From assembly GCA_963812035.1 (NCBI GenBank), contig CAWETG010000001.1:132590-196589 (forward strand): 64,000 nucleotides of DNA. The letters are read 5' to 3'. Numbering within the stretch: position 1 is the first letter of the stretch; every line of letters begins with the position of its first letter. The notes under the pieces are model-generated. The model made no database searches and was not told where the DNA came from. It worked only from the letters and a program-made list of their open reading frames with translations. Shown piece after piece: positions 24,641 through 56,981 of this stretch. Origin of the DNA: an uncultured Gemmatimonadales bacterium (GTDB lineage Bacteria; Gemmatimonadota; Gemmatimonadetes; Gemmatimonadales; JACORV01). A program made the translations under genes and the position numbers.

Positions 24641-25935
<1,295 letters not shown>

Positions 25936-39145: not shown

Positions 39146-39158
39146 CGCGACAGCCGGG

Positions 39159-39584
39159 TTAGGCGCCCGGATCCTCGTCCGGCGCCTGGCGGGCCGCCCG
39201 GCGCGCCTCGCGCGAGTCGGCGAGCCGCCGCTCCAGCTCCTCGCGTGCGCTCTGCGCCACGTCGCGGCCGGCTTCGACCACGTCCCGCGCGGTCTGGCGT
39301 CCTTCCTTCACGCTGCGCTTCGCGCTCTCGAGGCCTTCCTCCACCCGGGCGCGGGCCTCTTCGTAGCGCCCCGCCACCAGGTCCTCCAGCTCGTCCACCT
39401 TCTGCGACGCGAGGTCCTTGAGCTTCCGGGAGCGCGAGGCGAGATCGGCGCGCAGCTCCTCGCCGCTCATCGGCGCGAACAGCAGTCCCAGGGCGGCGCC
39501 GACCGCCAGCCCCCACAGGAAGGGCACCACCGGCGAGCCATGCCGTTCCACCACCTCGTCGTCGTCATCATCGTGCCGCGCCAT
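39159..39584 (-). CDS. YtxH-domain protein
   Basis: ORF 39159..39584. GLAVGAALGLLFAPMSGEELR followed by a charged helical region. Confidence 0.7.
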   Translation of the reverse strand: MARHDDDDDEVVERHGSPVVPFLWGLAVGAALGLLFAPMSGEELRADLASRSRKLKDLASQKVDELEDLVAGRYEEARARVEEGLESAKRSVKEGRQTARDVVEAGRDVAQSAREELERRLADSREARRAARQAPDEDPGA

Positions 39585-39594
39585 GGTCCCCTCC

Positions 39595-41016
39595 CTATTC
39601 GCCGGCTTCGGCGTCGTCCGGCGCCGCGCTCATCGCGGCGGCGGGCTCCGTGCGGTGGATCACCGGCGCCTTCACGTGCCGGGCGACCAGCTCCGCGCTG
39701 TCCTTGACCTTGAGCGTCTCGAGCAGGAAGACGAACTGCTCCTCCAGCGCGGCGCCGAGCGCCGAGCGCACCACGTCGGGCAGCGCCCACCAGTCCTTCT
39801 TGAACGGGCCAAGCGCCTTCTTGCGCGTCTTGTAGAAGAACTGCTCGTCCGTCTCCCCGGCCTTGCGCTCGTTGGCCGCGTTGTCGCGCAGCCAGTCGTA
39901 GAGCTTCGCCTTGAACGCGGCCGGCGTGGCCTGGTGGTCGAACAGCAGGCTCTGGAACGCGGTCGCGAGGTGGATTTCCGCCGTCTCCACCTCGGGGAAC
40001 TTCCCGAAGGCGGAATTGGGCAGCGTCGAGGCGCCGTGCTGAACCGCGCCCGCCATCGCGTACCGCTCCCGCGCGTCGCGGGAGAGCAGCCGCAGCGTCT
40101 CGAAATCGATTTTCACGGTCGCGATCGAACCGTCGGGGAGCACCACCCCGCCGTGGCTCGTCCCAGTCTGCACGCTGATCTTGGAGATGCCGGTCAGGCC
40201 GGCGCCGCGCGCGGCGAGCGCCTTGCGGTAGCCGTCCATGAACGCGTGCTGCTCTTCGATGGTGCTGTTCTTGCCGCCCACCTCGCCGATCTCCGCGCCG
40301 ACGGAGATAGTGACGCCCTTCGGCTCCTCGCGGCGAATCGCCTCCGTCAGCTCCGCGGCGCGCTCGTAGTTCACGCGCTGCTGCGAGTCGAGCGTCGGCT
40401 GCGAGAGGTCCACCAGCGTCGAGGTGTCCACGTCGATGTTGTAGAAGCCGGCCGCGACCGCCTCCTTGATCAGGGCCTTCACCCCGCCGACCTCGCCCTC
40501 CGGATCGGACGCGTACTTCTTGGCGTTGATCTGGAAGTGGTCGCCCTGCACGAACAGCGGGCCGCGGAAGCCCTCGCGCAGCGCCGCGGCCAGCAGCACC
40601 GCCACGTACTCCGTCGGGCGCTGGTCGGTGTACGCCATCTCGGAGCGGGCGATCTCGATGAGGAAGGCGCCCGCCTTGAGGCTCCGCGCCGCGCGGAACA
40701 GCGCGCGCGCCGAGTCGTACACCAGGCCGCGGATGTTGATGGCGGGAACGGTGAAGCCGTGAATGGCCCCGCGCCCCCGCGCCATGTAGAAGTCGTGGAT
40801 GGAGGCCGGCCGGACGCCCACCACCTGGCCGATCTCCCACAGCAGCCACCGCGCGGCGTCCCGGGCCGCCGCGTCGCCGAAGACGGCGGTCCAGGCGAGC
40901 TGGTCGGTGGCCGGGCCGGTCAGGGCGTTGGGTCGGGGGACCTCGACCTTCCCGGCGGCGTTCAGGGTCACGGAACCGGCGAAAGGCGCGAGCAGCTTGA
41001 GGGCGATCTCCTGCAT
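39595..41016 (-). CDS. Class II fructose-bisphosphate aldolase family protein (long form)
   Basis: ORF 39595..41016. FTVPAINIRG, LFVQGDHFQ, GTSHGG. Exact substrate not assignable. Confidence 0.7.
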   Translation of the reverse strand: MQEIALKLLAPFAGSVTLNAAGKVEVPRPNALTGPATDQLAWTAVFGDAAARDAARWLLWEIGQVVGVRPASIHDFYMARGRGAIHGFTVPAINIRGLVYDSARALFRAARSLKAGAFLIEIARSEMAYTDQRPTEYVAVLLAAALREGFRGPLFVQGDHFQINAKKYASDPEGEVGGVKALIKEAVAAGFYNIDVDTSTLVDLSQPTLDSQQRVNYERAAELTEAIRREEPKGVTISVGAEIGEVGGKNSTIEEQHAFMDGYRKALAARGAGLTGISKISVQTGTSHGGVVLPDGSIATVKIDFETLRLLSRDARERYAMAGAVQHGASTLPNSAFGKFPEVETAEIHLATAFQSLLFDHQATPAAFKAKLYDWLRDNAANERKAGETDEQFFYKTRKKALGPFKKDWWALPDVVRSALGAALEEQFVFLLETLKVKDSAELVARHVKAPVIHRTEPAAAMSAAPDDAEAGE

Positions 41017-41191
41017 GACGGCTCCCGAAAAACGAGGTTAGAGGAGGTCAGACATCGAAATGTATGGACCCCGCACAGGCGCGTCAAAACGCAGTCATCA
41101 CGCCGGCGGTCGCAGGTTGCCCGGTCCGCTCCCCGCGGCCAGATTCCGCGCTCGGCCCCCGTCACCGCCCCACCTCCAGGATGGCCGGACC

Positions 41192-41569
41192 ATGAGCGAC
41201 ACACCCAGGTTCCCGTACGCCACGCACCTCAACGTCCTGCACGGCCCGCTGGAGCAGATCGACCTGCAGGCGCTGGTGGACGCGTGCCGCGACCCCTGGT
41301 ACAACCAGACGCTGTGCCAGGTGAACGACGCCGTGGTGCGCCTCGGAGTGGTGCAGGGGGAATACCACTGGCACCAGCACGACGAGGAGGACGAGTTCTT
41401 CTACGTCGTGTCGGGACGGCTGCTGGTGGACCTCGAGGGGCGCACGATGGAGCTGGGGCCCCGTCAGGGCGTCGTAGTCCCGCGCGGCGTGCGGCATCGC
41501 ACCCGCGCCCCGGAGCCGACGGTGATGCTGATGGTCGAGCGCGCGACCATCGTGCCGACGGGGAGCTGA
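41192..41569 (+). CDS. Cupin-domain protein
   Basis: Frame of ORF 41060..41569, ATG 41192. GEYHWHQHDEEDEFFYVVSGRLLVDL...VVVPRGVRHR. Confidence 0.7.
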   Translation: MSDTPRFPYATHLNVLHGPLEQIDLQALVDACRDPWYNQTLCQVNDAVVRLGVVQGEYHWHQHDEEDEFFYVVSGRLLVDLEGRTMELGPRQGVVVPRGVRHRTRAPEPTVMLMVERATIVPTGS

Positions 41570-41571
41570 GC

Positions 41572-41970
41572 GTGACGCGATCGCGAGGGGCCCCGGCGCG
41601 CGTGCTCGAGTATCGCCTTCCCGGCGAATGGACGGTGCTGGTCGGGCGCTCGGACACCGACAACGACCGGCTGAGCATCAAGCTCTCGCGCAATGACGAC
41701 TGGTGGTTCCACGTGCGCGGCATGCCCGGCAGTCACGTGATACTCCGCGGCCCCGAGGGTGCGGAGCCCGATCGGGAGATGCTCGAACGCGCGGCGGCGA
41801 TCGCCGCCTACCACAGCAAAGCGCGAGAAGCCGGCGTGGTGGCGGTGTCCTGCACCCGCGCCCGGTACGTCACCAAGCCGCGCGGCGCGAAGGCAGGAAC
41901 GGTGCAGATCAGCAGGGAGAAGGTGCTCAAGGTCCGGCCTGGAATCCCCGCAGCCCTGCCGGAGGCCTGA
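41572..41970 (+). CDS. DUF814 / NFACT RNA-binding-domain protein
   Basis: Tail of ORF 39418..41970. GTG 41572 lies 2 nt after the cupin stop. VLVGRSDTDNDRLSIKLSRNDDWWFHVRGMPGSHVIL. Confidence 0.7.
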   Translation: MTRSRGAPARVLEYRLPGEWTVLVGRSDTDNDRLSIKLSRNDDWWFHVRGMPGSHVILRGPEGAEPDREMLERAAAIAAYHSKAREAGVVAVSCTRARYVTKPRGAKAGTVQISREKVLKVRPGIPAALPEA

Positions 41971-41988
41971 GGCTCCACTGTCGCCGCG

Positions 41989-42771
41989 CTAGGCGCCTTC
42001 GCAGTCCACCACCAGCCCATCGTACGCCGGCTCGATGCCGGGCGGCAGCTCGGCCAGGAGCGCCGCGTGGCCCGTCTCGTGGGTGAGGTGGGTCAGGTAG
42101 CTGCGCTTGGCTCCGATCGCCCGCGCCGTCTCCACCGCCTCCGGTATAGAGAGGTGCGTGGGATGCGACCGGTGGAACAGGGCGTTCAACACCAGCACGT
42201 CGAGCCCCGCCAGGGCCGTGCGCTCAGGCGCCGGCACTTCCTTCACGTCGGTGAGGTACGCCAGCGGGCCGAACCGGAAGCCGAGCACAATGCTTGGGCC
42301 GTGCGAGAAGCCGAGCGGCAACACCGAGACTCCCGCAATGGCAGTTTGGACACCCGGCTCGAGCACCGTCGTCGTCACGTCGGGTCGCGACGAGCCGGGA
42401 ATGGGCTTCGCCAGCGGATCGAAGATGTAGCCGAATTTCCGCCGCATCCGCTCCAGCGCGTCGGCCGGCCCGTAGATCGGCACCGTGCCGCGATGCTGGC
42501 CGCTCAGCGCCCGCAGGTCGTCGATGCCGTGCGTGTGGTCGGCGTGATCGTGGGTGTACAGCACCGCGTCCACCGAGCCGATCCCGGCGGCCAGCATCGC
42601 CAAGCGCAGCTCCGTCGGCGTGTCGACCAGGATCGTGGCCCCGCCCGACTGCACGACCACCCCGCAGCGGTTGCGCTTGTCCCTGGGGTCGGTCGAGCGG
42701 CACACCGGGCACGGGCACCCGATCTGCGGGATGCCGAACGAGGTCCCCGTCCCGAGGAAGGTGAGTCGCAC
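41989..42771 (-). CDS. MBL-fold metallo-hydrolase (PhnP-like)
   Basis: Frame of ORF 41989..43164. GTG 42771 lies 2 nt after the pyk stop. LTFLGTGTSFGIPQIGCPCPVC and the HxHxDH motif YTHDHADHTHG. Confidence 0.75.
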   Translation of the reverse strand: MRLTFLGTGTSFGIPQIGCPCPVCRSTDPRDKRNRCGVVVQSGGATILVDTPTELRLAMLAAGIGSVDAVLYTHDHADHTHGIDDLRALSGQHRGTVPIYGPADALERMRRKFGYIFDPLAKPIPGSSRPDVTTTVLEPGVQTAIAGVSVLPLGFSHGPSIVLGFRFGPLAYLTDVKEVPAPERTALAGLDVLVLNALFHRSHPTHLSIPEAVETARAIGAKRSYLTHLTHETGHAALLAELPPGIEPAYDGLVVDCEGA

Positions 42772-42773
42772 CG

Positions 42774-44180
42774 CTACACCTCTTCGACCTTGACGAGGTT
42801 GGTTGTGCCCGGCACGTCGAACGGCACCCCCGCCGTCACCACCACGCGATCCCCCCGCTTCGCCAAGCCCTGCTCCAAGATCCGCCCGCGCGCCGCGTCG
42901 AGCATGGCGTCGTACTGCGGCGGGCCGTCGGCCAGCATCGGTATCACACCCCACACCAGCGCCAGCTGCCGGAACGTCGGGCCATTGTCGGTCACCGCGA
43001 GGATCGGCACCGCGGGCCGGCTCGCCGCCACCATCCGCGCACTGAACCCACTCTTGGTGAAGGTCACGATGACCGGGGCACGGAGCATCTTCGCCGCGGC
43101 GACCGCGGCGGCCGCTACCGCGTGCTCGGTCCGCGCCGGGGCGTCGGCGCGCCCGTCGAGCCACTCCGGGCCGGGCCGCCAGTGCGCATCGCCCTCGACC
43201 GCGCGAATGATGCGGTCCATCGCTTCCACCGCCCCCGTCGGATGGTCCCCGACCGCCGTTTCCGCGGACAGCATCACCGCATCGGTGCCGTCGAGGATGG
43301 CGTTGGCCACGTCGGAGGCCTCGGCCCGGGTGGGACGCGGGTTGTGGATCATCGATTCGAGCATCTGCGTGGCGGTGATGACCGGGCGGCGGTGCTCGAC
43401 GGCCACGCGGATCACCCGCTTCTGAGCGAGCGGCACCAGCTCGAACGACAGCTCAACCCCGAGATCGCCGCGCGCGACCATCACGGCGTCGCTGGCGTCG
43501 GTGATGCGTTCGAGGTCGCCGAGGGCGGTGTCCTTCTCGATCTTGGCGACGATGCGGACGGTGGCCGGCAACAGCGCGCGCAGCGCCGCGACATCCTCCG
43601 CCTTCCGCACGAACGACAGCGCGAGGTACTCCACGCCGTGCTCGAGGGCGAACGCGACGTCGGCGCGGTCCTTCTCGGTCAGCGCGGGCGCCGAGACCGC
43701 CACGCCCGGGAGGTTGATGCCCTTGTGGCTGGTCAGCTCGCCGCCGTCCTTGACCCGCGCCTCGACGCGGGGAGGGCGCACCGCGACCACGTCCAGCTCC
43801 ATGAGCCCGTCGGCCAGGAGAATCCGCGTGCCTTCCCGGACGTCCGCCGCGAGATCGTAGGTGGTGGGGATGTCACCGGCGCCCGCCGCCCCCTCCGGCG
43901 CGAAGCAGACGGTGCGCCCCGGCACCAGCACCACCGGCGCCGCGAGGGCGCCCACGCGGATCCGCGGGCCCTGGAGATCGAGCAGCACGGCGACCGGCTT
44001 GCCGGCCTGGGCCGACGCCGCGCGCGTCGCGGCGATGAGCGACGCGTGCTGCTCCGGAGTGCCGTGCGATGCGTTGACCCGGGCCACGTCGAGTCCGGCG
44101 GCGATCAGCGCGGCAACCTGCTCCCGCGACGACGTGGCGGGCCCGAGCGTGGCCACGATCTTGGTGCGGCGGATGTTCAC
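42774..44180 (-). CDS. pyk: Pyruvate kinase
   Basis: Frame of ORF 42774..44363. GTG 44180 preceded by gagggag. RRTKIVATLGPATSS, NASHG, MVARGDLGVE. Confidence 0.9.
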   Translation of the reverse strand: MNIRRTKIVATLGPATSSREQVAALIAAGLDVARVNASHGTPEQHASLIAATRAASAQAGKPVAVLLDLQGPRIRVGALAAPVVLVPGRTVCFAPEGAAGAGDIPTTYDLAADVREGTRILLADGLMELDVVAVRPPRVEARVKDGGELTSHKGINLPGVAVSAPALTEKDRADVAFALEHGVEYLALSFVRKAEDVAALRALLPATVRIVAKIEKDTALGDLERITDASDAVMVARGDLGVELSFELVPLAQKRVIRVAVEHRRPVITATQMLESMIHNPRPTRAEASDVANAILDGTDAVMLSAETAVGDHPTGAVEAMDRIIRAVEGDAHWRPGPEWLDGRADAPARTEHAVAAAAVAAAKMLRAPVIVTFTKSGFSARMVAASRPAVPILAVTDNGPTFRQLALVWGVIPMLADGPPQYDAMLDAARGRILEQGLAKRGDRVVVTAGVPFDVPGTTNLVKVEEV

Positions 44181-44202
44181 GCGCGCTCCCTCGCTGGCGC
44201 TT

Positions 44203-44475
44203 TCAGCCGCCGGCCTTCTTGTGGCGGGCACGGCGCTTGACCGCGTCGAGCGGAACACCCCGCCCGGCCGCCAGGTCCGCCCGTGCCTCCGCCACCCGGC
44301 GCAAGAACTCGGGATGGTGTTCGAGGCGATACTCAAACCAGTCCTCCTCGCCGTGAAAGCCAATGAGGACCGCCGCGGGCTGCCCGTGCCGCGTGATCAC
44401 GATTTCCTCGCGCTCCGCCTGTCGCAGATAGCGCGAGAGATCGTCCTTAACCTTCGCCAGCGCGACCGCCTTCAT
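44203..44475 (-). CDS. Phd/YefM-family type II antitoxin
   Basis: ORF 44203..44475. MKAVALAKVKDDLSRYLRQAEREEIVITRHGQPAAVLIGF. Confidence 0.8.
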   Translation of the reverse strand: MKAVALAKVKDDLSRYLRQAEREEIVITRHGQPAAVLIGFHGEEDWFEYRLEHHPEFLRRVAEARADLAAGRGVPLDAVKRRARHKKAGG

Positions 44476-44764
44476 CGGCCACCCCCTTCTTCTCGAGCCA
44501 GGCCTGCGCCTCGGCCTTCGTGACGATGGCCAGCACCTGAACCTCCGTGGCGGTCACATCATAGAAGACGCGAATCTCGCCCACTCGAAGCCGGTACTGT
44601 GGCCGACTCAGGCCCCGGAGGCGCTTGATGCGGCTCCTCGACACCTGGGCCGGCTCATGGCGCAGATGCGTTTCGAGCGCATCGCCAAGCTCCCCGCGCC
44701 GCCGGGCCGACAACGCCCGGAAGGCCATGGCTACGTTTGGAGCCAGGACGATCTCGTAACGCAT
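44447..44764 (-). CDS. RelE/ParE-family type II toxin
   Basis: Tail of ORF 44447..45100, ATG 44764. KRLRGLSRPQYRLRVGEIRVFYDVTATEVQVLAIVTK. Overlaps the downstream antitoxin gene by 29 nt. Confidence 0.75.
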   Translation of the reverse strand: MRYEIVLAPNVAMAFRALSARRRGELGDALETHLRHEPAQVSRSRIKRLRGLSRPQYRLRVGEIRVFYDVTATEVQVLAIVTKAEAQAWLEKKGVADEGGRAGEG

Positions 44765-44847
44765 TCTGGCTACAATATAGCCAGAATAAGGTCGCTGCGC
44801 CACGTCCCGGCCAAGGGTCCCGCTCCGAGCGTGGCGAGACGAGAGAG

Positions 44848-44882
44848 GAGCTCCACCCCCAGTCTCACCAGCCGCGGCGGGC
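44848..44882. repeat. Orphan copy of the TonB-receptor 3' terminus (direct repeat, left)
   Basis: gagctccacccccagtctcaccagccgcggcgggc is 33/35 identical to 47723-47757. On the minus strand it would encode PPRLVRLGVEL, with a stop 6 codons upstream, so no remaining gene body. Confidence 0.85.
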
Positions 44883-45093
44883 TCCGGCAGACGTCTCACC
44901 ACGAACATCGGCCGGCAGAGCAGCCAGTCACACCTTGCGATGATGCTCGACAGCGCATTCAACCGGCTGCTATCATTGCGATTGTCGCGCTCAGCAGCAG
45001 GCTGAGCGATCGGCCTCGAACAACTCACGGCTGAGGCGCCAGCCGCGGCCGGATGAGCCGGCTGGAGCGCCGGCGCCGTGAAGGAGGAGTTGG

Positions 45094-47685
45094 ATGACAC
45101 GGGTCATGCGAGTTCGATCTCTCGCCGTGGTCGCAGTGTTCGCGGCCGCCGCCTGGGTTCCGCTCACTCCCGCCGCGCGGCCCGCTGGCGCCACCGCCGC
45201 CGACTCGTGCCCGTGGGTGCACTCGACGGCCCCGATCGCGGCCCGGGTGGCCCAGGTCGTGTCGGCGCTGACGCTGGAGGAGAAGATCCAGCTGGTGCAC
45301 GGCGCGACGGGGACCGTCTATGCCGGGTACGTTCCCGCGATCCGGCGGCTGTGCATACCGGCGCTGAAGCTGCACGACGGTCCCGGCGGCGTGGCGGACG
45401 GCCTGACCGGCGTGACCCAGCTCCCCGCCCCGGTGGCGGTGGCGGCGAGCTGGGACACGTCGCTGGCTTTGGCATACGGCGCGGTCATCGGGGACGAGGA
45501 GTGGGGCAAGGGCGCGAACGTCAATCTCGGCCCGACCGTCAACATCGTCCGCGATCCACGGTGGGGCCGCGCCTTCGAATCGTTCGGCGAGGACCCCTAC
45601 CTGGCCGGGCAGCTCGCCGCCGCGGAGATCCAGGGCGTGCAGGGCCAGGGTGTCCTGTCCCAGGTCAAGCACTGGGACGCGTACAACCAGGAGACCTTCC
45701 GCAACACCCCGGCCGACAATGTGGTCATCGCCCAGCGAACGCTGCACGAGATCTACATGCCCCAGTTCGAGACGGCGATCAGGGAGGGTGGCGTGTCGTC
45801 GGTGATGTGCGCCTACAGCACGATCAACGGTGCGTGGGCGTGCGAAAACGACGTTACCCAGGACAGCGTGCTCAAGGGACGGTGGCGGTTCCGCGGATTC
45901 ATCACGTCGGACTGGGGGGCGACGCACTCCACAGTGGCTTCGGCCGGCCACGGCCTCGACCTGCAGATGCCGGACAGCTCCTGGTTCGGCGCGGCGCTCG
46001 AGGCCGCGGTGTTGGCCGGTCAGGTGCCGATGTCGCGGCTGGACGACATGGTTGGCCGGATTCTGGCCCAGGAATTCCGGTTCCATCTCTTCGACCGCGA
46101 GCAAAGCGGCGGGCCGTCCTCCGTCGTGACCAACGAGCAGCACGCTGCCTTCGCGCGAGCTGCCGCCGAACAGGGCACCGTGCTGTTGCGGAATTCGGGC
46201 AACGTGCTCCCCTTCGACACGGGCACGGTGCACTCCATCGCGGTGATCGGCTACGACGCCGGGCAGGGAACGATGAGCGGCGGTGGCGGCAGCGCCGCGG
46301 TGGTCGCGCCCTACGTCGTCACGCCCTTCCAGGGGATCGCGAATCGGGCCGGCGGCGGCGTGGCGGTGCGCTACGCCCAGGGCTCGCTCCAGCCGAACGG
46401 TACGCTCCCGCTGGTGCCGCCCCGGTACCTGACGCCGTCGTCGGGCGGTGGCCAGGGACTGACCGCGCAGTTCTACAACAACATGACCCTCTCGGGTGCC
46501 CCGGTGTTGACCCGCGTGGACTCGATTGTCGCCGCCGACTGGCACGACCGGTCGCCGGGGCCGGGCATGAACGCCAATCAATGGTCGGCCAGGTGGACGG
46601 GGACGCTGACCGCTCCCGCCACCGGCGAGTACACCTTCTCGCTCACCAGCGACGACGGCAGCCGGCTGCTGGTGAACGGAGCACAGATCATCGACAACTG
46701 GCGGGAGCAGGCGCCGACGACCGAGATCCGGAAGGTGACGCTCACCGCCGGCCAGGCCGTGCAGATCGAGGTGGACTACTACCAGGACGGCGGCGGTGAC
46801 TCGGTCAGCCTCGGCTGGCGACTGCCGGGCCAGCCTTCACTGATCGAGGAGGCCGCGGCGCTCGCGCGGTCCTCGGATGTCGCGGTGGTGTTCGCCAGCG
46901 ATTTCGAGAGCGAGGGCTCGGACCTGACCAGCATCGATCTCCCCGGCGAGCAGAACCAGCTGATCGACGCGGCGGCGGCGGCCAACCCCAAGACGATCGT
47001 CGTGCTGCACACGGGTTCTGCGATCACCATGCCCTGGCTGGACTCGGTCAAGGGGGTTTTGGAGGCGTGGTATCCCGGCCAGGAGGACGGCAGTGCCATC
47101 GCCGCGGTGCTGTTCGGCGATGCCAGCCCCTCGGGCAAGCTGCCGGTGACGTTCCCGAAGAGTCTCGCCGACGTTCCGGCCGCGACTCCCGCTCAGTGGC
47201 CGGGCGTGGGCGGCCAGGTGCAGTACTCCGAAGGACTGGACGTCGGGTATCGGTGGTACGGCGCCAAGGGCATCGCGCCGCTGTTTCCGTTCGGGTTCGG
47301 CCTGTCGTACACCACGTTCCGATTCGGGAACCTCCGGGTGACCAAAGCGCGGGGCCTGTCGATGAGGGTCAGCGCGGACATCACGAACACCGGCCGGCGC
47401 CCGGGTGCCGACGTGGTGCAGCTCTACGTCGGCGCTCCCGCTTCGACCGGTGAGCCGCCCCAGCAGTTGAGAGGCTTCCAGAAAGTCCAGCTCGGCCCGG
47501 GCCAGACCAGACGCGTGACCTTCCAGCTCGATCCGGTCGCCTTCGCGCAGTGGGATAGCACCGCCAATGGTTGGGTGGTCGACGCCGGCGTCTATCGGAT
47601 CGGCGTAGGGGATTCCTCGGCCAACCTCCCGTTGCGCGCCGATGTCACGCCCAAGCCTGGTCGGGTGCGCGGAAAGGGAGGGTGA
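45094..47685 (+). CDS. bglX: Secreted GH3 beta-glucosidase with inserted PA14 domain
   Basis: ORF 45094..47685. GPTVNIVRDPRWGRAFESFGEDP, GFITSDWGA (nucleophile region), PA14-like WSARWTGTLTAPATGEYTFSLTSDDGSRLLVNG. Confidence 0.9.
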   Translation: MTRVMRVRSLAVVAVFAAAAWVPLTPAARPAGATAADSCPWVHSTAPIAARVAQVVSALTLEEKIQLVHGATGTVYAGYVPAIRRLCIPALKLHDGPGGVADGLTGVTQLPAPVAVAASWDTSLALAYGAVIGDEEWGKGANVNLGPTVNIVRDPRWGRAFESFGEDPYLAGQLAAAEIQGVQGQGVLSQVKHWDAYNQETFRNTPADNVVIAQRTLHEIYMPQFETAIREGGVSSVMCAYSTINGAWACENDVTQDSVLKGRWRFRGFITSDWGATHSTVASAGHGLDLQMPDSSWFGAALEAAVLAGQVPMSRLDDMVGRILAQEFRFHLFDREQSGGPSSVVTNEQHAAFARAAAEQGTVLLRNSGNVLPFDTGTVHSIAVIGYDAGQGTMSGGGGSAAVVAPYVVTPFQGIANRAGGGVAVRYAQGSLQPNGTLPLVPPRYLTPSSGGGQGLTAQFYNNMTLSGAPVLTRVDSIVAADWHDRSPGPGMNANQWSARWTGTLTAPATGEYTFSLTSDDGSRLLVNGAQIIDNWREQAPTTEIRKVTLTAGQAVQIEVDYYQDGGGDSVSLGWRLPGQPSLIEEAAALARSSDVAVVFASDFESEGSDLTSIDLPGEQNQLIDAAAAANPKTIVVLHTGSAITMPWLDSVKGVLEAWYPGQEDGSAIAAVLFGDASPSGKLPVTFPKSLADVPAATPAQWPGVGGQVQYSEGLDVGYRWYGAKGIAPLFPFGFGLSYTTFRFGNLRVTKARGLSMRVSADITNTGRRPGADVVQLYVGAPASTGEPPQQLRGFQKVQLGPGQTRRVTFQLDPVAFAQWDSTANGWVVDAGVYRIGVGDSSANLPLRADVTPKPGRVRGKGG

Positions 47686-47713
47686 GCCTGTTCGGACGCG
47701 CGCCTTCCGCGCG

Positions 47714-50479
47714 TCAGAAGCTGAGTTCCACCCCCAGCCTCACCAGCCGCGGCGGGCCGTAAGCGAATATTGCCTGGTAGAAGTCGCGCGCCGCCGCCAC
47801 GTAGAGCGGCAGCAGCTCGGATTCGCCTGCGATGTATCCGTCGTGGTTGGTGTCGGCCCAGCCCCGGTAGCGCGGCGACTCGTACGGGATGGCCTGGGGG
47901 TTGGCCTGGTACGCCGCCAGCGCCGCCGCCTGGATGCCCGCCTCGCCCAGGCCCGGCGTGCCGGTGTCGCGCCGCACCGCGATGATGTTCCGCGTGTCGA
48001 GCAGGTTCCGCACGTCCACGTACACGCTGCCGCGCGCCGGCCCGATGCGGATGGGCCGCCGCAGCAGTGCGTCGAGCGTGTACTGCGAGGGCAACCGCTC
48101 GCCGTTGATCGGGCCGAGGAGCGTGTCGCCCGCGGCGTTGGTGAGCGTGTAGGGGAGCCCCGTGCTGAAGCGGAAGATCGCCGCGCCCTCGAGCCCCGCC
48201 AGCGGCCGCACCCCCAGCACCCGCGGCCCGAACGCGTCGTGGGCCCGCGCCTGGAAGATGGCCGTCACGCCGTGCCGCCGGTCGTAGTCGAGCGGATACT
48301 CCACGCGGCCCGGGTAGATCGTGTCGGCCCCGACGATGCTCGGCCCCTTCAGCTGGAACGCGCTGCTGGACGTGGCCGTGGCGTACTGGAGCGTGTAGGA
48401 GACCCTGAGGCCCCACCAGTCCTTCAGCTCGCGCTCCCACAGGATCTCGGCGCCCTTCACCGAGCCGTAGTCGGTGTTGCCGAAGATGGTGGAGTCGGGG
48501 TTGACCCCGTACGGGATGCTCGCCACCAGCCCGGTGAGCGCCTTCACGTAGACGTTGACCCGCAGCGACATGTCGGGCGTGGGGCGCGCGCGTACGCTGA
48601 ACTCGTACTGGGTGGACTGCTCGAAGCCGAGATCCGGATTGCCCACCCGGAACCGGCCGGTGCGGGTCGTGTCCTGGAACGCCGCGTCCACCATGTACTG
48701 AAAATCGGGCGCCTGGCTGAAGCGGCCGTAGCTGGCCACGAAGGTGGCGCCGTGCAGCACGGCCGAGATGGCGAAGCGCGGGTTGAGGCTGGAATGCGCC
48801 GTGATCGCCCCTCCCGCCACCGTGGCGTGCGGATCGAACGTGTCGTACCGCGCGCCGAAGGTGAACGCCAGATCCTGCCACCGGACCTGCGTCTCCGCGT
48901 AGGCCGCGGCGCTGGTGGGCGAGAAGTCGGCCGTCGTCGCGGGCGGCACCGTGTCGCCCACCGGCAGGAAGGCCAGCACCCGCTGGAACGTTTCGACCCT
49001 CTGCCGCACCAGCTCGCCGCCCACGTACACGTCGGCCTGGTGCGACAGGCCGAGGTCCACGTCGAGCTGCGTGCGGAACTCGCTGAAACGGTTCCAGGCG
49101 ATCTCGCCGTCCGAGGCGCCGCCCATGAAGAACGCCGGCACGCCCCACGGCGTGTTGGTGCTGAAGTCCGGGGTCGCGAAGCCCGGCACCGCCCCGAGCG
49201 CGGCCGCCGTGTCCCGCGCGCGCGCTATCGCCTCGCCCTGGAAATGGAAGGCGCGGTCGGCGAAGGCTCCGAACGGGTAGGAGACGGGCACGTCGAGCGC
49301 CCCGCGCTCGAAGTCCCGCGTGAAGTAGCCCACGCGGAGGTCCGCCAGGATCGAGGTGGGCATCGAGGGCGGTGACACCAGCTGGAGGTGCCCTGTGAAC
49401 AGGTTCCCCGTGAGGCGCTGCGCCGGCGCGAACGACTGGTCGTACTTGTACGCCTGGTCGTACAGCAGCTGCTGGCCGTCGGAGTGCAGCGCGAACAGCC
49501 GCAGCGTCTGCCGCTCCGCGAACGGCACGGTGAGCTTGGCGGCGGCGTCCACTTCCTGGCCGGCGTTGTGGGGCAGCATGTAGGGCTGCGCGGTCCGCGG
49601 GTCGCGCGGGTCGGTAGGCGCGGGGGCGTTCACCGGGTCGGCATCGAGGCGCCCCGTGGCGTCCACGGCACCCAGCAGCGTGATGCCGGCGAACAGCGGG
49701 CCGTCGGCCTCGAACACCGCGCGGTCGAGGCCGTGGTCCACCGCCGCGCCCAGGCCCCGGTCGGTTTCGTACGCCGCCCGGCCCTGCCACCGCTCGCCGC
49801 CGTCCTTGGTCACCACGTTGATGAGGCCCGACAGCGCCTGCCCGTAGCGCGCCGAGAATCCGTCGGTGACGAGCGAGGCCTCGGTGAGGATGTCGGGCGG
49901 GAGGTTGATCCCGAGCGTTCCCGTCGAGGCGTCGAGCTGGTTCTTGAGTCCCAGGCCGTCGATGATGAACGCCTGCTCGCCCAGCCGCCCGCCGCGGTAG
50001 CTGTCGCCCACCGCGCCGGCGGAGAGGGCCACGGCCTCTTCCAGCGTGCTCACGGGCAGGTGCCGCAGGTCGTCGGAGGAGATGTGCTGCACGGTGGCGG
50101 TGGCGAGCGGGTCCAGCACCGCGTCGGGCGCGACCTCGACCGAGACGGCCCCCAGCTGCACGGCCTGCGGCACCAGCGGGAAATCCAGCCGCGTCGTCTC
50201 GCCCGACCGCACCGGGACGCTGTCCCGGCTCGCGGTCGCGTAGCCGATCAGCCGCACCGTGACCCGGTGGAGGCCGCTGTGCACCCCACGTACGTCGTAG
50301 CCGCCCGAGGAATCCGTCAGCGCCGCGAGACGCCCGTCCACCAGCACCTGCGCGCTGCGCAGGGACGCCTGCGACCCTTGGTCGCGCACCTGCCCGCTTA
50401 TCGAGCCCGTGGACTGCGCGGGGAGCCGGGCCGCCGCGACGGCCAGGCACGTTGCGACCAGCGCGCCGAGCCGTCTCAT
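47714..50479 (-). CDS. TonB-dependent receptor with N-terminal carboxypeptidase-regulatory-like domain
   Basis: ORF 47714..50479. Signal, then GSISGQVRDQGSQASLRSAQVLVDG, a plug region, and a terminal aromatic ...VELSF. Confidence 0.85.
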   Translation of the reverse strand: MRRLGALVATCLAVAAARLPAQSTGSISGQVRDQGSQASLRSAQVLVDGRLAALTDSSGGYDVRGVHSGLHRVTVRLIGYATASRDSVPVRSGETTRLDFPLVPQAVQLGAVSVEVAPDAVLDPLATATVQHISSDDLRHLPVSTLEEAVALSAGAVGDSYRGGRLGEQAFIIDGLGLKNQLDASTGTLGINLPPDILTEASLVTDGFSARYGQALSGLINVVTKDGGERWQGRAAYETDRGLGAAVDHGLDRAVFEADGPLFAGITLLGAVDATGRLDADPVNAPAPTDPRDPRTAQPYMLPHNAGQEVDAAAKLTVPFAERQTLRLFALHSDGQQLLYDQAYKYDQSFAPAQRLTGNLFTGHLQLVSPPSMPTSILADLRVGYFTRDFERGALDVPVSYPFGAFADRAFHFQGEAIARARDTAAALGAVPGFATPDFSTNTPWGVPAFFMGGASDGEIAWNRFSEFRTQLDVDLGLSHQADVYVGGELVRQRVETFQRVLAFLPVGDTVPPATTADFSPTSAAAYAETQVRWQDLAFTFGARYDTFDPHATVAGGAITAHSSLNPRFAISAVLHGATFVASYGRFSQAPDFQYMVDAAFQDTTRTGRFRVGNPDLGFEQSTQYEFSVRARPTPDMSLRVNVYVKALTGLVASIPYGVNPDSTIFGNTDYGSVKGAEILWERELKDWWGLRVSYTLQYATATSSSAFQLKGPSIVGADTIYPGRVEYPLDYDRRHGVTAIFQARAHDAFGPRVLGVRPLAGLEGAAIFRFSTGLPYTLTNAAGDTLLGPINGERLPSQYTLDALLRRPIRIGPARGSVYVDVRNLLDTRNIIAVRRDTGTPGLGEAGIQAAALAAYQANPQAIPYESPRYRGWADTNHDGYIAGESELLPLYVAAARDFYQAIFAYGPPRLVRLGVELSF
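47723..47757. repeat. Direct repeat, right copy (functional 3' end of the TonB receptor gene)
   Basis: gagttccacccccagcctcaccagccgcggcgggc encodes the terminal PPRLVRLGVELSF of ORF 47714..50479. Confidence 0.85.
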
Positions 50480-51534
50480 GGCACCTGGAGCAGCCAGAGG
50501 TCCGCCGGCCGGCTCCCTCCCAGCTCGATCACCACCCGCGCCCCGGACGGCGACAGGGCGGGCCGCCGCACCGACTGCGCGGGGTCGGGCGAGGGGATGA
50601 CCGTGACGGCCGTGTCGCCCAGGGTGGCGGTGGTGAGCGTTCCGCCGATCATGGCGACCAGCACCGTGCCGCTCACCTGCACCTCGCTCGGCACGCCGGC
50701 GCTGCCGAAGTCGTACAGCACGGCCGCCGCTCCCCCGGGCCTCGGCAGCCGGTAGACGCGCGTGTCGCCCTGCAGCGTGTAGATCAGCGCGCCGCTCGAG
50801 TCCACCGCGAGCGACGTGGCGTTCGCCGTGCCCGGGACCACGGTGCGCGCCGGGGCCGCGCCCGTGAGGTCCACCAGCCCGATCTCCAGCGGGATGGTCA
50901 CGGTGTCGGCGTACACCCCGCTGGTGATGTAATTCACCTGCTCGGCGAGGTAGACCAGCGTGTCGGCGCCGATCCAGTGCAGGTGCGACGCGTCGTCGCG
51001 GAACTGCCCGTCCGTCCCGAGGTAGGGGAAGCCGACCACCACGAGGCCGGGGTCGGGCGCGCCGAGGCTCGCCACCACCAGCTCCCGGCTCTTGGGCGCG
51101 AGATCACCCGGCAGGGAGCTTTCGCGCACGTAGGCCAGCGCGCCGCCCGGCCCGACGGCGGGATCCCACAGCGTGTTGGTGGAGTCGGCGTCGTCCACCA
51201 CCGGGGTGTGGCACATCGTGCGGAGCTGGTGCCCGCCCTCCGCCGGCAGGATGGCGAGGCAGCGGTCGTTGTCGGCGGTACCGCGCGCGAAGGTGTAGAT
51301 GATGCCGGAGCCGTCGGGCAGCCACGAGGGCTCGAGGTCGGCGCTCGGGCTGAAGGTGAGCTGCCGCGGGAAGGCCGTGCTGAAGGGCACGTTGGGCTCG
51401 CCCGACACCGCGTTGAACGGCTGCGCGTGCTCGCACGCGGCCAGGCCGGCGAGCGCGAACCCCAGCGCCAGCGGCCGCAGGCGCCTCAGCGCCGCGGGCC
51501 AACGCCGCGCACGGAGATCCGGGCTACGTGCCAC
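50476..51534 (-). CDS. PD40/TolB-like beta-propeller lipoprotein
   Basis: Frame of ORF 50476..51825. GTG 51534 inferred. Lipobox FALAGLAAC. PD40-like EPSWLPDGSGIIYTF and RRPALSPSGARVVIEL. ATGA overlap with the receptor gene. Confidence 0.55.
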   Translation of the reverse strand: MARSPDLRARRWPAALRRLRPLALGFALAGLAACEHAQPFNAVSGEPNVPFSTAFPRQLTFSPSADLEPSWLPDGSGIIYTFARGTADNDRCLAILPAEGGHQLRTMCHTPVVDDADSTNTLWDPAVGPGGALAYVRESSLPGDLAPKSRELVVASLGAPDPGLVVVGFPYLGTDGQFRDDASHLHWIGADTLVYLAEQVNYITSGVYADTVTIPLEIGLVDLTGAAPARTVVPGTANATSLAVDSSGALIYTLQGDTRVYRLPRPGGAAAVLYDFGSAGVPSEVQVSGTVLVAMIGGTLTTATLGDTAVTVIPSPDPAQSVRRPALSPSGARVVIELGGSRPADLWLLQVP

Positions 51535-53065
51535 GGGTGGGGAACGTCTCCAGCAGCCAGCGGCGCCAGCGCTCGTGGCGCTGCATGGCCAGCACGAACG
51601 GCCGCTCGCGCGGCAGCTCCTTGGCCCGGAGCAGCGCGCGCAGGGCCTGCCGCTCGGCCGGCTCCCAGCGCGGCAGATCGGGCACCAGGTCGGCGACGGG
51701 CGCGAGGCGCTCGGGCACCGGGCCGCCCAGCGCGCGGGACACGCCGCGCACCGCGGCGGCCACCGCGGCCGCGCGGTCTCCGCCGTGCCGCGACCGGATG
51801 GCCCGCGTGACCGCGAAGCCCACACGCCGCACGTCCACGTCGCGGAAGTCCTCGGGCCGGGTGCCGTCGGTGGCGAGCATCATGTCGCTCTGGGCCAGGC
51901 GCCGCAGCATCGCCGGTGCGCTGCGCGAGCCCGCGCGCCGCGCCAGCCGGGCGGCCTCGACGTCGGCCAGGGCGCGCACGCCGCGGTCCAGGGAGCGGAA
52001 GCCGAGTTTGTAGTAGAACCAGAACGAGCCGGCCTCGATGCCCTCGGGATTCTGGTGGCCGATCTGGTAGCGGCGCATCACGAACTTGCGCGCGCCGAAG
52101 TGATGGTGGAACACGGCGCAGAAGCGATCGAACACGTACGGCGACTCGCCGCCGCGGTAGGTGGGGAAGATGTTGATCCCGATGTCGGCGCGGCCGAAGA
52201 GCAGCACCGCGTACCCGTAGCCGATGGGCACCCCGTTCTTCACCAGCAGCGCGCCGTAGTCGCCTTCCAGGGTGAGCCGCAGCGCCGGCGCGAGGCCGAT
52301 CACGAAGATCTCGAGTCCGCGGCCCGCGTCCACCCGGTACACCTCGGCGCGGTGCCCGTGCACGATGACGTGGAATTCGCGCTCCCGCTGCGACAGCGCG
52401 GCGCGCGCGGCGTCGATCACCCGGTCGGCGCGCTCCGGCGACAGCGGTTGCAGCGCGCCCGGCGGCCGCAGCACCTCCCGCGCGAAGTCGGCGGGCCGGG
52501 CGGAGAGGAGCCGGCGATGGTAGAACGGCCGCGCCGGCAGCCGCGCATGGGTGATCGCGTCGCGGCACCCGGCCAGGTCCCAGCGGATGGGGAGGTTCAG
52601 CGCCTCGAAGAGGTGCGCCTCCAGCTTCGGCCCCAGCCGCTGGGCCGCGAGCACGTCCAGGAGCCACGCCAGGTCGGTGCGCCGGTCGGGGCCCTTGGCC
52701 GCGCGGATCCACTCCCAGGAGGGCACCTCGTCGTCGTCCAGCCCCTCGTTCTCCGCCCAGGCCACCACCAGCGAGAGCAGGGCCGCCACGTCGTCCCACG
52801 CCCGGCGCCGGTACGCCGGCCAGTCGATGTCCGCCGCGCGGCCGTAGCGCCCGCGCAGCCAGCGCGTCATGGCGTAGTTGAAGGGATAGTGGTAGCTGGT
52901 GCCGGCGATGCCGGTGTTGCGCAGCGCATCCTTGAGCGGCGCGGCCCGGCGCTCGAACAGCGCCAGCTCGCGCTCGGCGCGCCGCAGCTCCGCGGCGTTC
53001 CGGGGGAAGGCGCGGGCAAAGCACACGCGCTCGTGACGCGCGAGCAGCGCGTCGGCCTGCGTCAC
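51524..53065 (-). CDS. Conserved-looking hypothetical protein (513 aa), no family recognised
   Basis: Frame of ORF 51524..53266. GTG 53065 lies 1 nt after the upstream stop; the longer ORF overlaps the aminotransferase gene. Coding-like composition throughout. Confidence 0.55.
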   Translation of the reverse strand: MTQADALLARHERVCFARAFPRNAAELRRAERELALFERRAAPLKDALRNTGIAGTSYHYPFNYAMTRWLRGRYGRAADIDWPAYRRRAWDDVAALLSLVVAWAENEGLDDDEVPSWEWIRAAKGPDRRTDLAWLLDVLAAQRLGPKLEAHLFEALNLPIRWDLAGCRDAITHARLPARPFYHRRLLSARPADFAREVLRPPGALQPLSPERADRVIDAARAALSQREREFHVIVHGHRAEVYRVDAGRGLEIFVIGLAPALRLTLEGDYGALLVKNGVPIGYGYAVLLFGRADIGINIFPTYRGGESPYVFDRFCAVFHHHFGARKFVMRRYQIGHQNPEGIEAGSFWFYYKLGFRSLDRGVRALADVEAARLARRAGSRSAPAMLRRLAQSDMMLATDGTRPEDFRDVDVRRVGFAVTRAIRSRHGGDRAAAVAAAVRGVSRALGGPVPERLAPVADLVPDLPRWEPAERQALRALLRAKELPRERPFVLAMQRHERWRRWLLETFPTRGT

Positions 53066-53066
53066 G

Positions 53067-53915
53067 CTACGCACACTCCCGCTCGACCACCGCGGCAAAC
53101 AGCTCCGCCAGGCGGCGCGTGACCGGCCGCTCGGCGGGGAGCTTGTGCCCGTCGAGCGTGTCGATGGACACCACGTCGTACGGCGTGCTGGTGAGGAACA
53201 GCTCGTCGGCCTCCGCCAGCTCGGTGGCGAACACCGGCGTCTCGCGGCACGGGATGCCGTGCTCACGGCACAGGTCGAGCACCACGGCGCGGGTGATGCC
53301 CGGGAGGATGTAGTTGGAAAGCGGCGCGGTGCGCACCTCGCCGTCGAACACGGCGAAGAAGTTGCTCAGCGAGCCCTCCTGCACCACGCCGTCGCGCACG
53401 AACAGGCCCTCGTGCGCTCCCAGCTCCTTGGCCCGCTGCGCCGCCATCGAGTTCGGGACCAGCGACGTGACCTTGATGTCGCAGCGCGACCAGCGCACGT
53501 CGGGCTCGAGGATCGCGGCCGCCCCGGGGCCGTCGAACGCCGGGTTCTTCGTGAACGCCCAGGCCATGCCGAACACCGTGGGATGGGTGTCGGCCGGCGG
53601 GAACACGTGCGAGCGCGGCGCGGTGCCGCGCGTGATCTGCAGGTAGATGAGCGCGTCGCCCGTCAGGCCGTTCTTCTCGAGCAGGCGACCCGGCACTTCC
53701 TCGAGCGGCGTGAGGTGGGCGCCGATCCGCATCTTGGCGCAGCTCGACGCCAGGCGCGCGAAGTGCTCGGAGAGGAGGAAGATCCTGCCGTGGTACGCGC
53801 GGATCATCTCGTACACGCCGTCGCCGTAGGTGAAGCCCCGGTCGAGCGGGCTGATGAGCGCCTTGTCTTGCGGCAGGTACTGCCCGTTGAGGTAGACGGT
53901 AGTCATGGCCAGCAA
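53067..53915 (-). CDS. Class IV (D-amino-acid / branched-chain) aminotransferase
   Basis: ORF 53067..53915. LDRGFTYGDGVYEMIRAYHGRIF and LQITRG. Confidence 0.8.
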   Translation of the reverse strand: MLAMTTVYLNGQYLPQDKALISPLDRGFTYGDGVYEMIRAYHGRIFLLSEHFARLASSCAKMRIGAHLTPLEEVPGRLLEKNGLTGDALIYLQITRGTAPRSHVFPPADTHPTVFGMAWAFTKNPAFDGPGAAAILEPDVRWSRCDIKVTSLVPNSMAAQRAKELGAHEGLFVRDGVVQEGSLSNFFAVFDGEVRTAPLSNYILPGITRAVVLDLCREHGIPCRETPVFATELAEADELFLTSTPYDVVSIDTLDGHKLPAERPVTRRLAELFAAVVERECA

Positions 53916-53927
53916 CCTAGGCCTGAA

Positions 53928-55070
53928 CTAGCGGCGCCGCCAGATCGCCCACGTGGCCACGACCTCGTCGCCGCGAACCACCTGGTAGGCGTCGAACTGC
54001 GCCGCCGTCAGGCACGAATGGTTCGGCAGGATCCGGAGCTTCTCCCCCACCGCGAAGCGCCCCTCGATGTCGTGCGCCGTGTCGCCCCCGACCATCCCGT
54101 GCTCCTGGGAGACGCCGCGCACCTGCACCCGGGGCTCGAGGTCGTGACCGGCGAGCCCGGCCAGGACCGGGCCGAGGCCCCGCGCCAGGGCGGGATCGTG
54201 GGGCCCCGGGTCCTTGGAGAGCGTCAGCGCCCCGGCGTCCACCACCGCGTGGGCCGCGCCACGCTGGTGCGAGACCACGCTCGCCAGGACGGTGACCGCG
54301 CAGTCCTCCGCCGCGCAGACGCCTCCGGCCAACTGCATGAAGTCGTAGAAGGCGTAGTTGCCCGGCCGGACCTCGCTCATGCCGTCGAGTCGCTCCACCG
54401 CCGACATCGCCGGCGTCGAGCCGACGCTGACGGCCGGCACGTTCACGCCCTCCCCCGCGAGCATCCCGGCAAGCGCGACCATCGTCGCGCGCTCCCCTTC
54501 TGCGATGGCGGCCCGCTCGGCACGGGTGCGTGCGTCATAGCTGTGCCCCGCGTGCGTGAGGAGGCCGTCGAACACCACCCCGCGCTCCCTCGCCAGCCTT
54601 CGCGCCAGGGCGACGCTCGCGGCCGCGCGCGGGTCCACACCCGAACGGTGATGCCCGGAATCCACCTCCAGCCAGGCGTGCACCTCCACCCCGGCGGCGC
54701 GAGCGGCGGCGCCGAGCGCGTCCAGCGCCTCGGGCGAGTCCAGCGTGACCCGGAACGCGATCCGGCGGGCGAGCGCGACCACCTCGTCGAGCCGGCCCAC
54801 GACCAGCGGGAACGCCCAGGTGATGTCGGTGAAACCGCCGTCGGCGAAGGCGTGCGCCTCGGGCAGCGTGGCCACGGTGATCCCGCGGGCTCCGCGCTCG
54901 AGCTGCATCCGGCCCACCTCGAGGCACTTGTGCGTCTTGACGTGCGGGCGCAGGGCGACGCCCAGCGCGCGGGCGCGCTCGGCCATCCGGTCCAGGTTGC
55001 GCTCGAGGACGTCGAGATCGAGGAGGAGGGCGGGCGTCGGCAGGTCGCCGACAACAGAGCGGCGCGGCAT
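53928..55070 (-). CDS. DSD1-family PLP enzyme (D-threonine aldolase / D-serine dehydratase-like, alanine-racemase N-domain fold)
   Basis: Frame of ORF 53928..55403, ATG 55070. LPTPALLLDLDVLERNLDRM, RPHVKTHK (PLP Lys), C-terminal ILPNHSC. Confidence 0.75.
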   Translation of the reverse strand: MPRRSVVGDLPTPALLLDLDVLERNLDRMAERARALGVALRPHVKTHKCLEVGRMQLERGARGITVATLPEAHAFADGGFTDITWAFPLVVGRLDEVVALARRIAFRVTLDSPEALDALGAAARAAGVEVHAWLEVDSGHHRSGVDPRAAASVALARRLARERGVVFDGLLTHAGHSYDARTRAERAAIAEGERATMVALAGMLAGEGVNVPAVSVGSTPAMSAVERLDGMSEVRPGNYAFYDFMQLAGGVCAAEDCAVTVLASVVSHQRGAAHAVVDAGALTLSKDPGPHDPALARGLGPVLAGLAGHDLEPRVQVRGVSQEHGMVGGDTAHDIEGRFAVGEKLRILPNHSCLTAAQFDAYQVVRGDEVVATWAIWRRR

Positions 55071-55108
55071 CAGTCGAAACTGACTCCGCGCCGCCGAAAG
55101 CTCAATGC

Positions 55109-55492
55109 CTACTTCGCGAAGCCGCTCGGCATCTGGAGCAGGAAGAACTTGTTGCCGTCCAGGTCCTCGAAGTTCGCGACGATGCCGCCCCACCGCTCCT
55201 TGCGCGGCTTCAGCGTGAACTTGACCTTCTTCTTCGTCAGGGCCTTGTAGGTCTTCTCGATGTCGTCCACCTGGAAGCTCACGCCGGTGCGCACCCCGAT
55301 CAACTTCTTGGCCTTCTTGTTCCACGGGGTCGTGAGCGAGAGCGTAGTGCGCCCTGCCCCGCAGTCGAAGCACACCCAGTCGTGCTTCTTGTCGAAGAAG
55401 CACAGCCGCAGGCCGAGCTTGTCGCGGTAGAACTTGAGGGACCGGCCGAGGTCCTCGACGACGACGGTGACGTTCCCGATCAGCGTGATCAT
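55109..55492 (-). CDS. VOC-family (glyoxalase/bleomycin-resistance fold) protein
   Basis: ORF 55109..55492. VVVEDLGRSLKFYRDKLGL...FEDLDGNKFFL. Confidence 0.75.
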   Translation of the reverse strand: MITLIGNVTVVVEDLGRSLKFYRDKLGLRLCFFDKKHDWVCFDCGAGRTTLSLTTPWNKKAKKLIGVRTGVSFQVDDIEKTYKALTKKKVKFTLKPRKERWGGIVANFEDLDGNKFFLLQMPSGFAK

Positions 55493-55507
55493 AGACCGCT
55501 CCAGCCT

Positions 55508-56881: not shown

Positions 56882-56981
56882 ACCTTCCTCGTGCCCGCAA
56901 TTTCTGTGCTCGGGTGGGAGGCCACGGAATCGGCCGCGTCTGCTGGCTCGAACGGATGTTCGACGCTTTACATCGTCATTC

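Follow-up and report, generated by a model that had tools for sequence, protein, structure and literature searches.

The 64-kb window analyzed here (the whole stretch of DNA, 64,000 nt; all coordinates are positions within it) is placed in the Gemmatimonadales by the homologues of its TonB-dependent receptor (TBDR). The subject of this study is a GH3 beta-glucosidase gene that lies between the receptor gene and the pyruvate kinase gene (pyk) and is bracketed by a 35-nt direct repeat. The receptor gene occupies 47714-50479 on the minus strand and is intact, encoding 921 aa with CarboxypepD_reg and TonB_dep_Rec_b-barrel domains (Pfam matches PF00593 and PF13620; no separate Plug-domain match was reported). 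The protein ends in GVELSF (full tail ...PPRLVRLGVELSF before the stop), a C-terminal strand closing on an aromatic residue, and its orthologues in the Gemmatimonadales are 71-93% identical. The GH3 gene (45094-47685, plus strand) faces it and encodes 863 aa with a PA14 insert, an Fn3-like domain and a signal-like sequence at the N-terminus. Beyond it, all on the minus strand, lie a RelE/ParE-family toxin gene (44447-44764, 105 aa), which overlaps the start of a Phd/YefM antitoxin gene (44203-44475, 90 aa; PF02604, 1e-10), and pyk (42774-44180, GTG start at 44180), the core gene found directly beside the receptor gene in relatives that lack the insert.

The two copies of the repeat lie at 44848-44882 (GAGCTCCACCCCCAGTCTCACCAGCCGCGGCGGGC) and 47723-47757 (GAGTTCCACCCCCAGCCTCACCAGCCGCGGCGGGC), 2875 nt apart, and agree at 33 of 35 positions, with an abrupt loss of similarity beyond both ends. 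They are the only copies in the 64 kb at up to three mismatches (0.00 expected from 100 shuffles), so that an objection raised in the original prediction, that the 35-mer might be a dispersed repeat, finds no further copy within the window. The right copy, read on the minus strand, forms the functional 3' end of the receptor gene, coding for PPRLVRLGVEL of the terminal beta-strand; AGC TTC TGA (SF and stop) follows it, and the translation runs ...YGPPRLVRLGVELSF to the stop. The left copy, in the same orientation, is an orphan. It reads as W, a stop and DVCRSPPRLVRLGVELLSRL, with PPRLVRLGVEL six codons after the stop; it has neither a gene body nor a stop of its own. Between the copies there are only a 211-nt spacer (44883-45093), the GH3-PA14 gene and 37 nt that hold a hairpin (47695-47715) and the last three receptor codons. 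The original prediction had described the repeat pair, the coding role of the right copy, the bodiless left copy, the spacer and gene between them and the lack of an integrase inside the insert, and all of this was borne out, the last by a Pfam scan, with the 37 nt to be added.

The left copy, flanked by the divergent genes GH3 and RelE, is a relic without coding function, and the only demonstrated present function of the repeat is the coding role of the right copy. The left copy is identical to the orthologue consensus, and to the empty-site locus L001 (L-numbers are labels of related loci), at 34 of 34 positions; the right, working copy has two synonymous differences from the consensus and ends in SF and stop where IF and stop is usual. 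That the repeat pair reflects chance similarity or an assembly artefact is extremely improbable. The genome is GC-rich with a strong codon bias and gives many short matches at 70-80% identity, but none was expected in the shuffles, both flanking open reading frames (ORFs) are intact, the same protein set is found on a 1.2-Mb contig, and related structures occur in independent assemblies (L025 and L041).

The arrangement without the insert was found in about 20 independent Gemmatimonadales loci (L001-L003, L009-L011, L024, L028, L030-L037, L039 and L042), in which the receptor gene is followed by pyk within about 30 nt. The receptors at these empty sites are 71-86% identical to that of the window and have a single copy of the terminus. 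The gene order there is TBDR, pyk, MBL-fold gene, NFACT-R gene, and the window keeps this order on either side of its insert, holding about 3.5 kb where the relatives have about 30 nt.

Three further loci lack GH3 and carry the RelE/Phd pair at the same junction, with the receptor gene, RelE/Phd and then pyk where the contig reaches it. Their receptors are about 80% (L025), 71% (L041) and 93% (L029, the closest relative) identical to that of the window. In L025 and L041 RelE begins 70-85 nt downstream of the working receptor end; in the window it begins 84 nt downstream of the left copy, and the RelE leader and palindromic operator of both loci align with window positions 44765-44811. In L029 a deletion (L029:3900-3945) has removed the 5' half of RelE together with its leader and promoter, leaving residues 46-105 and an intact Phd; the toxin is inactivated at the same junction, and since the leader is gone the spacing from receptor to RelE can be read in L025 and L041 only. 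Because the left copy is placed as the working ends of L025 and L041 are, and matches the consensus at 34 of 34 positions, it is taken to be the former receptor end of a TBDR-TA-pyk stage, with GH3 having entered upstream of it. The original prediction had proposed a synteny comparison for sites without the beta-glucosidase gene (bglX), and such sites thus exist in two forms, with and without the toxin-antitoxin (TA) pair. Judged from gene order in these relatives, the empty sites and GH3-free intermediates support an insertion, and the likely order of states is TBDR-pyk, then TBDR-TA-pyk, then TBDR-GH3-relic-TA-pyk.

The original prediction had offered, as its alternative to insertion, a deletion that left an orphan terminus. 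In its fuller form this would be a second, paralogous receptor gene whose body was deleted or replaced by GH3, and we regard it as very improbable. Tandem TBDR paralogues do occur in a distant relative (L015), but about 20 relatives have a single TBDR directly beside pyk, in L025 and L041 the position of the orphan is the working end of the single TBDR, and the spacer beside the left copy retains no homology to TBDR gene bodies or 3' regions (z about 0 in 8 comparisons). The deletion was rejected on these grounds. By eye and in raw local alignments the 211-nt spacer had resembled a decayed receptor 3' region, a candidate dismissed as GC-rich noise; when the spacer was compared with every 260-nt segment of seven related loci and of the window itself, z was between -0.8 and 1.0.

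The explanation that we hold to be the best, with rather more confidence than doubt, is that the two 35-mers are the present (right) and the former (left) 3' end of one receptor gene and that they arose by host recombination at a hot spot. Comparison of the loci indicates that the receptor gene and pyk were originally adjacent, about 30 nt apart, and that the RelE/Phd pair was the first to enter their junction. It further indicates that a self-contained GH3 unit was later inserted 44 nt short of the receptor stop, with the result that the 35 nt for the terminal beta-strand came to be present on both sides of GH3. The copy attached to the gene body, together with the new SF and stop codons, keeps the receptor whole, and the distal copy became a relic. 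As a mechanism we infer host recombination at a hot spot, with the conserved terminus providing a short stretch of homology. This may have been a single crossover with a circularised fragment on which a patch resembling the terminus was present, or a junction formed by homologous recombination at one end and by illegitimate recombination at the other. A dedicated integrase would not be needed.

Several points weigh against this explanation. Of the 9 nt that follow the left copy, 5-7 differ from every orthologue, against 0 of 34 inside the copy: they read CTC TCT CGT where the orthologues have NTN TTY TGA, and the stop is gone, while every simple conservative model predicts a relic with the old last codons and stop. 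About 175 nt of the spacer have no homologue, and 35 bp is close to the lower limit of RecA-dependent exchange. A GH3 gene convergent to a receptor terminus, as the donor arrangement would require, is absent from all seven GH3 loci. Two to three separate events at a single junction that each duplicated one gene end are also expected of a site-specific system. The order of events rests on parsimony, and L029 could have lost GH3 secondarily.

The stretch past the orphan (44812-44847, minus strand), which would correspond to the former last three codons and the former intergenic region, is identified by a positional motif only. It keeps CTCGCCACG, matching the place of CTCGCCCCG just past the stop in L041 and L025; the alignment of this flank with the intergenic region of the TA-bearing stage was not significant, which leaves the positional 8/9 motif as its support. 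It was also considered that the working end (SF, stop and hairpin) had been imported together with GH3, and this was rejected since none of the seven GH3 loci shows a GH3 gene facing a receptor gene.

Duplicated receptor ends are also found around the TA insertion. In L041 a second receptor terminus (copy B) lies 4 nt beyond the Phd stop. It begins 51 nt ahead of the stop position and agrees with copy A at 32 of 34 positions up to the contig end. L025 has a decayed second terminus (copy B), in which ...GCTTATCTTTTGA is perfectly kept, just before pyk and together with the canonical pyk leader, and the score of this terminus exceeds those of all 1000 shuffles; a small outer-membrane protein (OMP)-like ORF (L025:10359-10733, minus strand, ending ...GIFVSMSWR and stop) lies between Phd and this terminus. 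Together with the repeat of the window, these second termini indicate that the receptor-pyk junction has taken up DNA at least twice, each time with a receptor end left on both sides. The content between TBDR and pyk accordingly varies from nothing to TA, TA with OMP, and TA with GH3. The starting point of the duplication is -44 for the window, -51 for copy B of L041 and -27 or farther upstream for copy B of L025, values that come from few events and partly decayed copies. A search of about 80 further loci for second terminus copies downstream of receptor paralogues scored in L041 only. The original prediction had placed the RelE/Phd pair just outside the left copy; the position stands, but in the light of the copies B of L041 and L025 the pair is not an innocent neighbour and represents an earlier insertion. 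In the window, the Phd stop is followed only by AGCGCCAGC, which may be the remnant of a deletion that removed the small OMP gene and the second terminus.

A locus of another kind, L040, has about 90 nt instead of about 30 nt between the receptor stop and pyk (L040:9719-9805), with what seems to be a decayed second terminus and no cargo. It probably carries a cargo-free scar, as far as the modest match of the coding part allows (p about 0.02), and the stretch could be either an excision scar or a pre-insertion duplication. The latter possibility belongs to an explanation in which duplication came first: slippage or template switching at the palindrome-containing terminus (CCCGCCGCGGCTGG) would have produced a short tandem duplication of the gene end and hence a neutral gap in the tight TBDR-pyk junction, where unrelated DNA landed later. 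The two termini of L040, about 26 nt apart, would suit it, as would the roughly 30-nt empty junction, in which only insertions that spare both genes survive. It needs two steps for each cargo, however, with the insert falling exactly at the duplication joint, it leaves the scrambled codons after the left copy unaccounted for, as the other models do, and L040 itself may equally be a scar after cargo loss. We think this course of events rather improbable.

The main alternative explanation is site-specific and att-like, with the receptor terminus acting as attB for a recombinase encoded elsewhere. GH3 and TA would then be decayed, integrase-less elements in tandem accretion, each supplying a new gene end, like cis-mobilizable elements (CIMEs) beside integrative and conjugative elements (ICEs). 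It is favoured by three direct copies of the 3' end of one gene with two cargos between them, the newest cargo next to the gene body, and by the single copy at empty sites. The proximal copies at TA-bearing or scarred loci end non-canonically (ELLF, ELVF, ELSF), and the distal copies and empty sites end in the canonical ELIF, which fits a proximal end that the incoming DNA supplied; accretion of CIMEs at the 3' ends of genes has been described (PMC7563491). On the other side, no recombinase or transposase is encoded within the 2.9-kb insert, no tyrosine or serine recombinase or IntI was found among the larger window ORFs scanned with Pfam, and none of about 30 related loci gave an indication of an integrase at this junction (gene and Pfam lists; tblastn with the locus genes). 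The only recombinase-like gene among the scanned ORFs is an IS110-family transposase (24641-25801, minus strand; DEDD_Tnp_IS110 and Transposase_20 domains), 20 kb away. Neither terminal inverted repeats nor attC sites flank GH3, and the features of a DDE transposon are lacking, as there are no inverted repeats and no transposase in the insert and the duplication is 35 nt long and not 2-14 bp. The tiny cargos (0.65 and 2.9 kb) also speak against an att-like site, as do a GH3 gene whose divergence follows that of the species and which elsewhere lacks flanking repeats and, perhaps, the duplication boundaries, which differ among the few and partly decayed copies. Across 20 orthologues no extra nucleotide-level constraint on the 35-mer was found, and the 35-mer ranks only seventh in conservation among the 35-nt windows of the receptor gene, so that it gives no hint of the extra constraint expected of an att core. 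A dedicated att system is thus less likely than host recombination, and we consider it unlikely. Of the att-like insertion put forward by the original prediction, the insertion with a gene end on both sides is upheld by the empty sites and intermediates, and the att mechanism is not demonstrated.

Host recombination, the preferred explanation, agrees with the ancestry of the region. The receptor block (47.5-51.5 kb) is closest to L029 (90-94% nucleotide identity, with the TBDR 92% identical), pyk is closest to L024 and L032 (85-86%, and 82% to L029), and the outer flanks are closest to L001 (90-95%). The interval 37000-57000 is therefore a mosaic in which several recombination tracts end near the receptor-pyk junction, and such discordant affinities of flanking core genes are a sign of recombination that marks the junction as a hot spot. 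A recombination tract from TA-bearing lineages was tested separately and rejected, as sliding identity shows no rise towards L025 or L041 at the receptor 3' end.

Regarding the cargo itself, homology of GH3 with its orthologues extends from about 35 nt upstream of the start to 10-15 nt past the stop. The spacer and GH3 leader (44883-45093, plus strand) share their last ~35 nt, the ribosome-binding site (RBS) region, with the GH3 orthologues, and a search for homologues of the remaining ~175 nt, at 44883-45058, detected none. A sigma-70-like promoter, TCGACA-18-TATCAT, is present at 44947-44976 (10/12 matches, 0.1 expected). With this predicted promoter, the RBS leader, the gene and the hairpin, the insert would form a complete expression unit. 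The GH3 orthologues, with 75-81% amino acid identity, are found at other loci of the relatives in at least five different contexts; three of them share a metagenome-assembled genome or contig with an empty-site locus and lie elsewhere in it (L005 with L024, L007 with L002, L008 with L003). No repeats bracketing the orthologues were found in the relatives, and the identity of GH3 to its orthologues parallels the TBDR and pyk identity in those genomes. In L008, GH3 adjoins an Esterase-PepSY-AcrB-MFP-OEP cluster that is syntenic with 10.2-17.4 kb of the window, which suggests relocation within the lineage and not arrival on a foreign element. From these comparisons GH3 looks like a native accessory gene that shifts its location and not like the cargo of a mobile element.

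The same comparison of the window with L008 reveals a second variable interval (3500-10200 against L008:5200-11900). GH3 and GH53 lie just upstream of Esterase-PepSY-AcrB in L008, and a GDE_C glucosidase and a 204-aa ORF occupy this place in the window.

The RelE/Phd genes have the characters of a type II TA pair, being adjacent, small and overlapping and belonging to an antitoxin and a toxin family. RelE homologues are labelled RelE/StbE in the sources, some with PF05016; the window ORF, run as a 96-aa fragment, gave no Pfam match. The 5' leader of the pair (44765-44811, minus strand) has homologues at the corresponding place in L025, L041 and the L109 cassette described below, and contains a 21-nt palindrome, TCTGGCTACAATATAGCCAGA, at 44765-44785, which is probably the operator/promoter of the pair. 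L109 (L109:57-2800; JGI Ga0619418_09219869) carries a RelE (105 aa)/Phd (90 aa) pair as one cassette of an integron-like array, with repeats of about 140 nt every 500-740 nt that start with GCCTAAC and end with GTTAGGC (attC boxes). The RelE of this cassette is 77% identical (aa) to that of the window, and the homology of its leader with the window leader makes the TA pair between receptor gene and pyk look like a cassette that escaped from an integron. An integron origin of its boundaries was not borne out, as neither attC nor a G/TTRRRY junction is left at the TA boundaries of the window, where Phd is followed only by GGCTGAA and the L109 attC starts with GCCTAAC. The first ~90 nt of Phd (44386-44475), which overlap the RelE 3' end, are near-invariant at the nucleotide level in the window, L025, L029, L041 and L109; one of these five loci is an integron cassette, and their host genes are 71-93% identical. 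The conserved synonymous sites at the Phd 5' end suggest an overlapping regulatory or structural constraint.

The presence of the same TA pair as an attC cassette in L109 also allows a bolder view, in which the last ~45 nt of the receptor gene are a landing pad for the ordered stacking of single-gene units (TA, small OMP and GH3). Each unit may bring or regenerate the terminal beta-strand, with an unrecognised recombinase elsewhere or a cassette-intrinsic mechanism as the agent, and cassettes may be exchanged with integron arrays, the junction being an integron-like accretion platform without a local integrase. We put this forward as speculation and give it little credence.

The hairpin at 47695-47715 has a perfect 8-bp stem and a 5-nt loop (GACGCGCG CCTTC CGCGCGTC). 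GH3 and TBDR converge on this hairpin, which shares bases with the TBDR stop codon and probably terminates transcription in both directions. The hairpin was looked for downstream of the orthologous TBDRs at empty sites and was not found there, and an Rfam search of 43.5-48.5 kb gave no known RNA family. GC content at third codon positions is 0.95 for TBDR, 0.93 for pyk, 0.89 for GH3 and 0.77 and 0.82 for the TA genes.

Other repeats were observed in the window. A dispersed short repeat, GAGTTGCGAGACGCNGAGTTGCGAG, occurs at 16125-16149, 21291-21321, 35515-35556, 36994-37029 and 37109-37144, in both orientations and with some inverted pairs; this family looks REP-like or MITE-like (repetitive extragenic palindromic or miniature inverted-repeat transposable elements) and is unrelated to the 35-mer. 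Short-repeat runs of the GTGCCCCC type lie at 31270-31355 and 38203-38242 as inverted copies about 7 kb apart. Two AT-richer, long imperfect hairpins of about 100 nt (11442-11545 and 11921-12036) have in common a 45-nt direct repeat, the copies of which are 491 nt apart and agree at 44 of 45 positions. Between the hairpins, upstream of the AcrB efflux operon, lies a small gene on the minus strand, and the counterpart of this gene in L008 has a PepSY domain.

Taken as a whole, the scar that the GH3 insertion left in this soil Gemmatimonadales bacterium is a clear mark of gene gain, though an ordinary one, and the event is of a known kind. Its value lies in the way in which empty, intermediate and final states line up, so that a tight operon junction can be followed as it takes up genes without breaking the upstream gene: the terminal strand needed for outer-membrane protein assembly stays on the gene, and the old copy is left behind. 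Orphan gene termini of this type could serve to find and order past insertions in uncultured lineages. No new molecular system is revealed, and the case would become weightier only if a dedicated recombinase for the site were found.

Among known systems, integron cassettes resemble the locus in that the same RelE/Phd pair, with a homologous leader, is part of the L109 attC array and in that single-gene units stand in series. They differ in that the window GH3 and TA genes lack attC (RYYYAAC/GTTRRRY boxes), the repeats are the coding end of a receptor and IntI was not seen. In the ICESt1/ICESt3 family at fda, integrative elements occupy the 3' end of a gene and CIMEs are stacked by accretion (PMC7563491). 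As there, the cargo lies between direct repeats, of which one completes the target gene, tandem cargos are parted by copies, and empty sites have a single copy; unlike there, no integrase or integrase-bearing relative is known at the site, each cargo is a single expression unit (0.65-2.9 kb), the repeat boundaries appear to vary with the event and GH3 seems to be native to the lineage. Homology-facilitated illegitimate recombination and Campbell-type single crossover are known from experiments. No donor molecule or junction microhomology has been identified at the window locus to match them, and the likeness to these two processes is that a short patch of identity anchors relocated or foreign DNA and that a single crossover duplicates the patch on both sides. 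Transfer hot spots between core genes can lack mobile elements and show frequent homologous recombination in their flanks (Oliveira, Touchon, Cury and Rocha 2017, PMC5635113). The junction described here differs from these in that each insertion duplicated the last 27-51 nt of the upstream gene, which is not described as a general feature there. It shares with them a variable content between conserved TBDR and pyk genes, no recognisable mobile element and discordant flanks, and this match favours host recombination.

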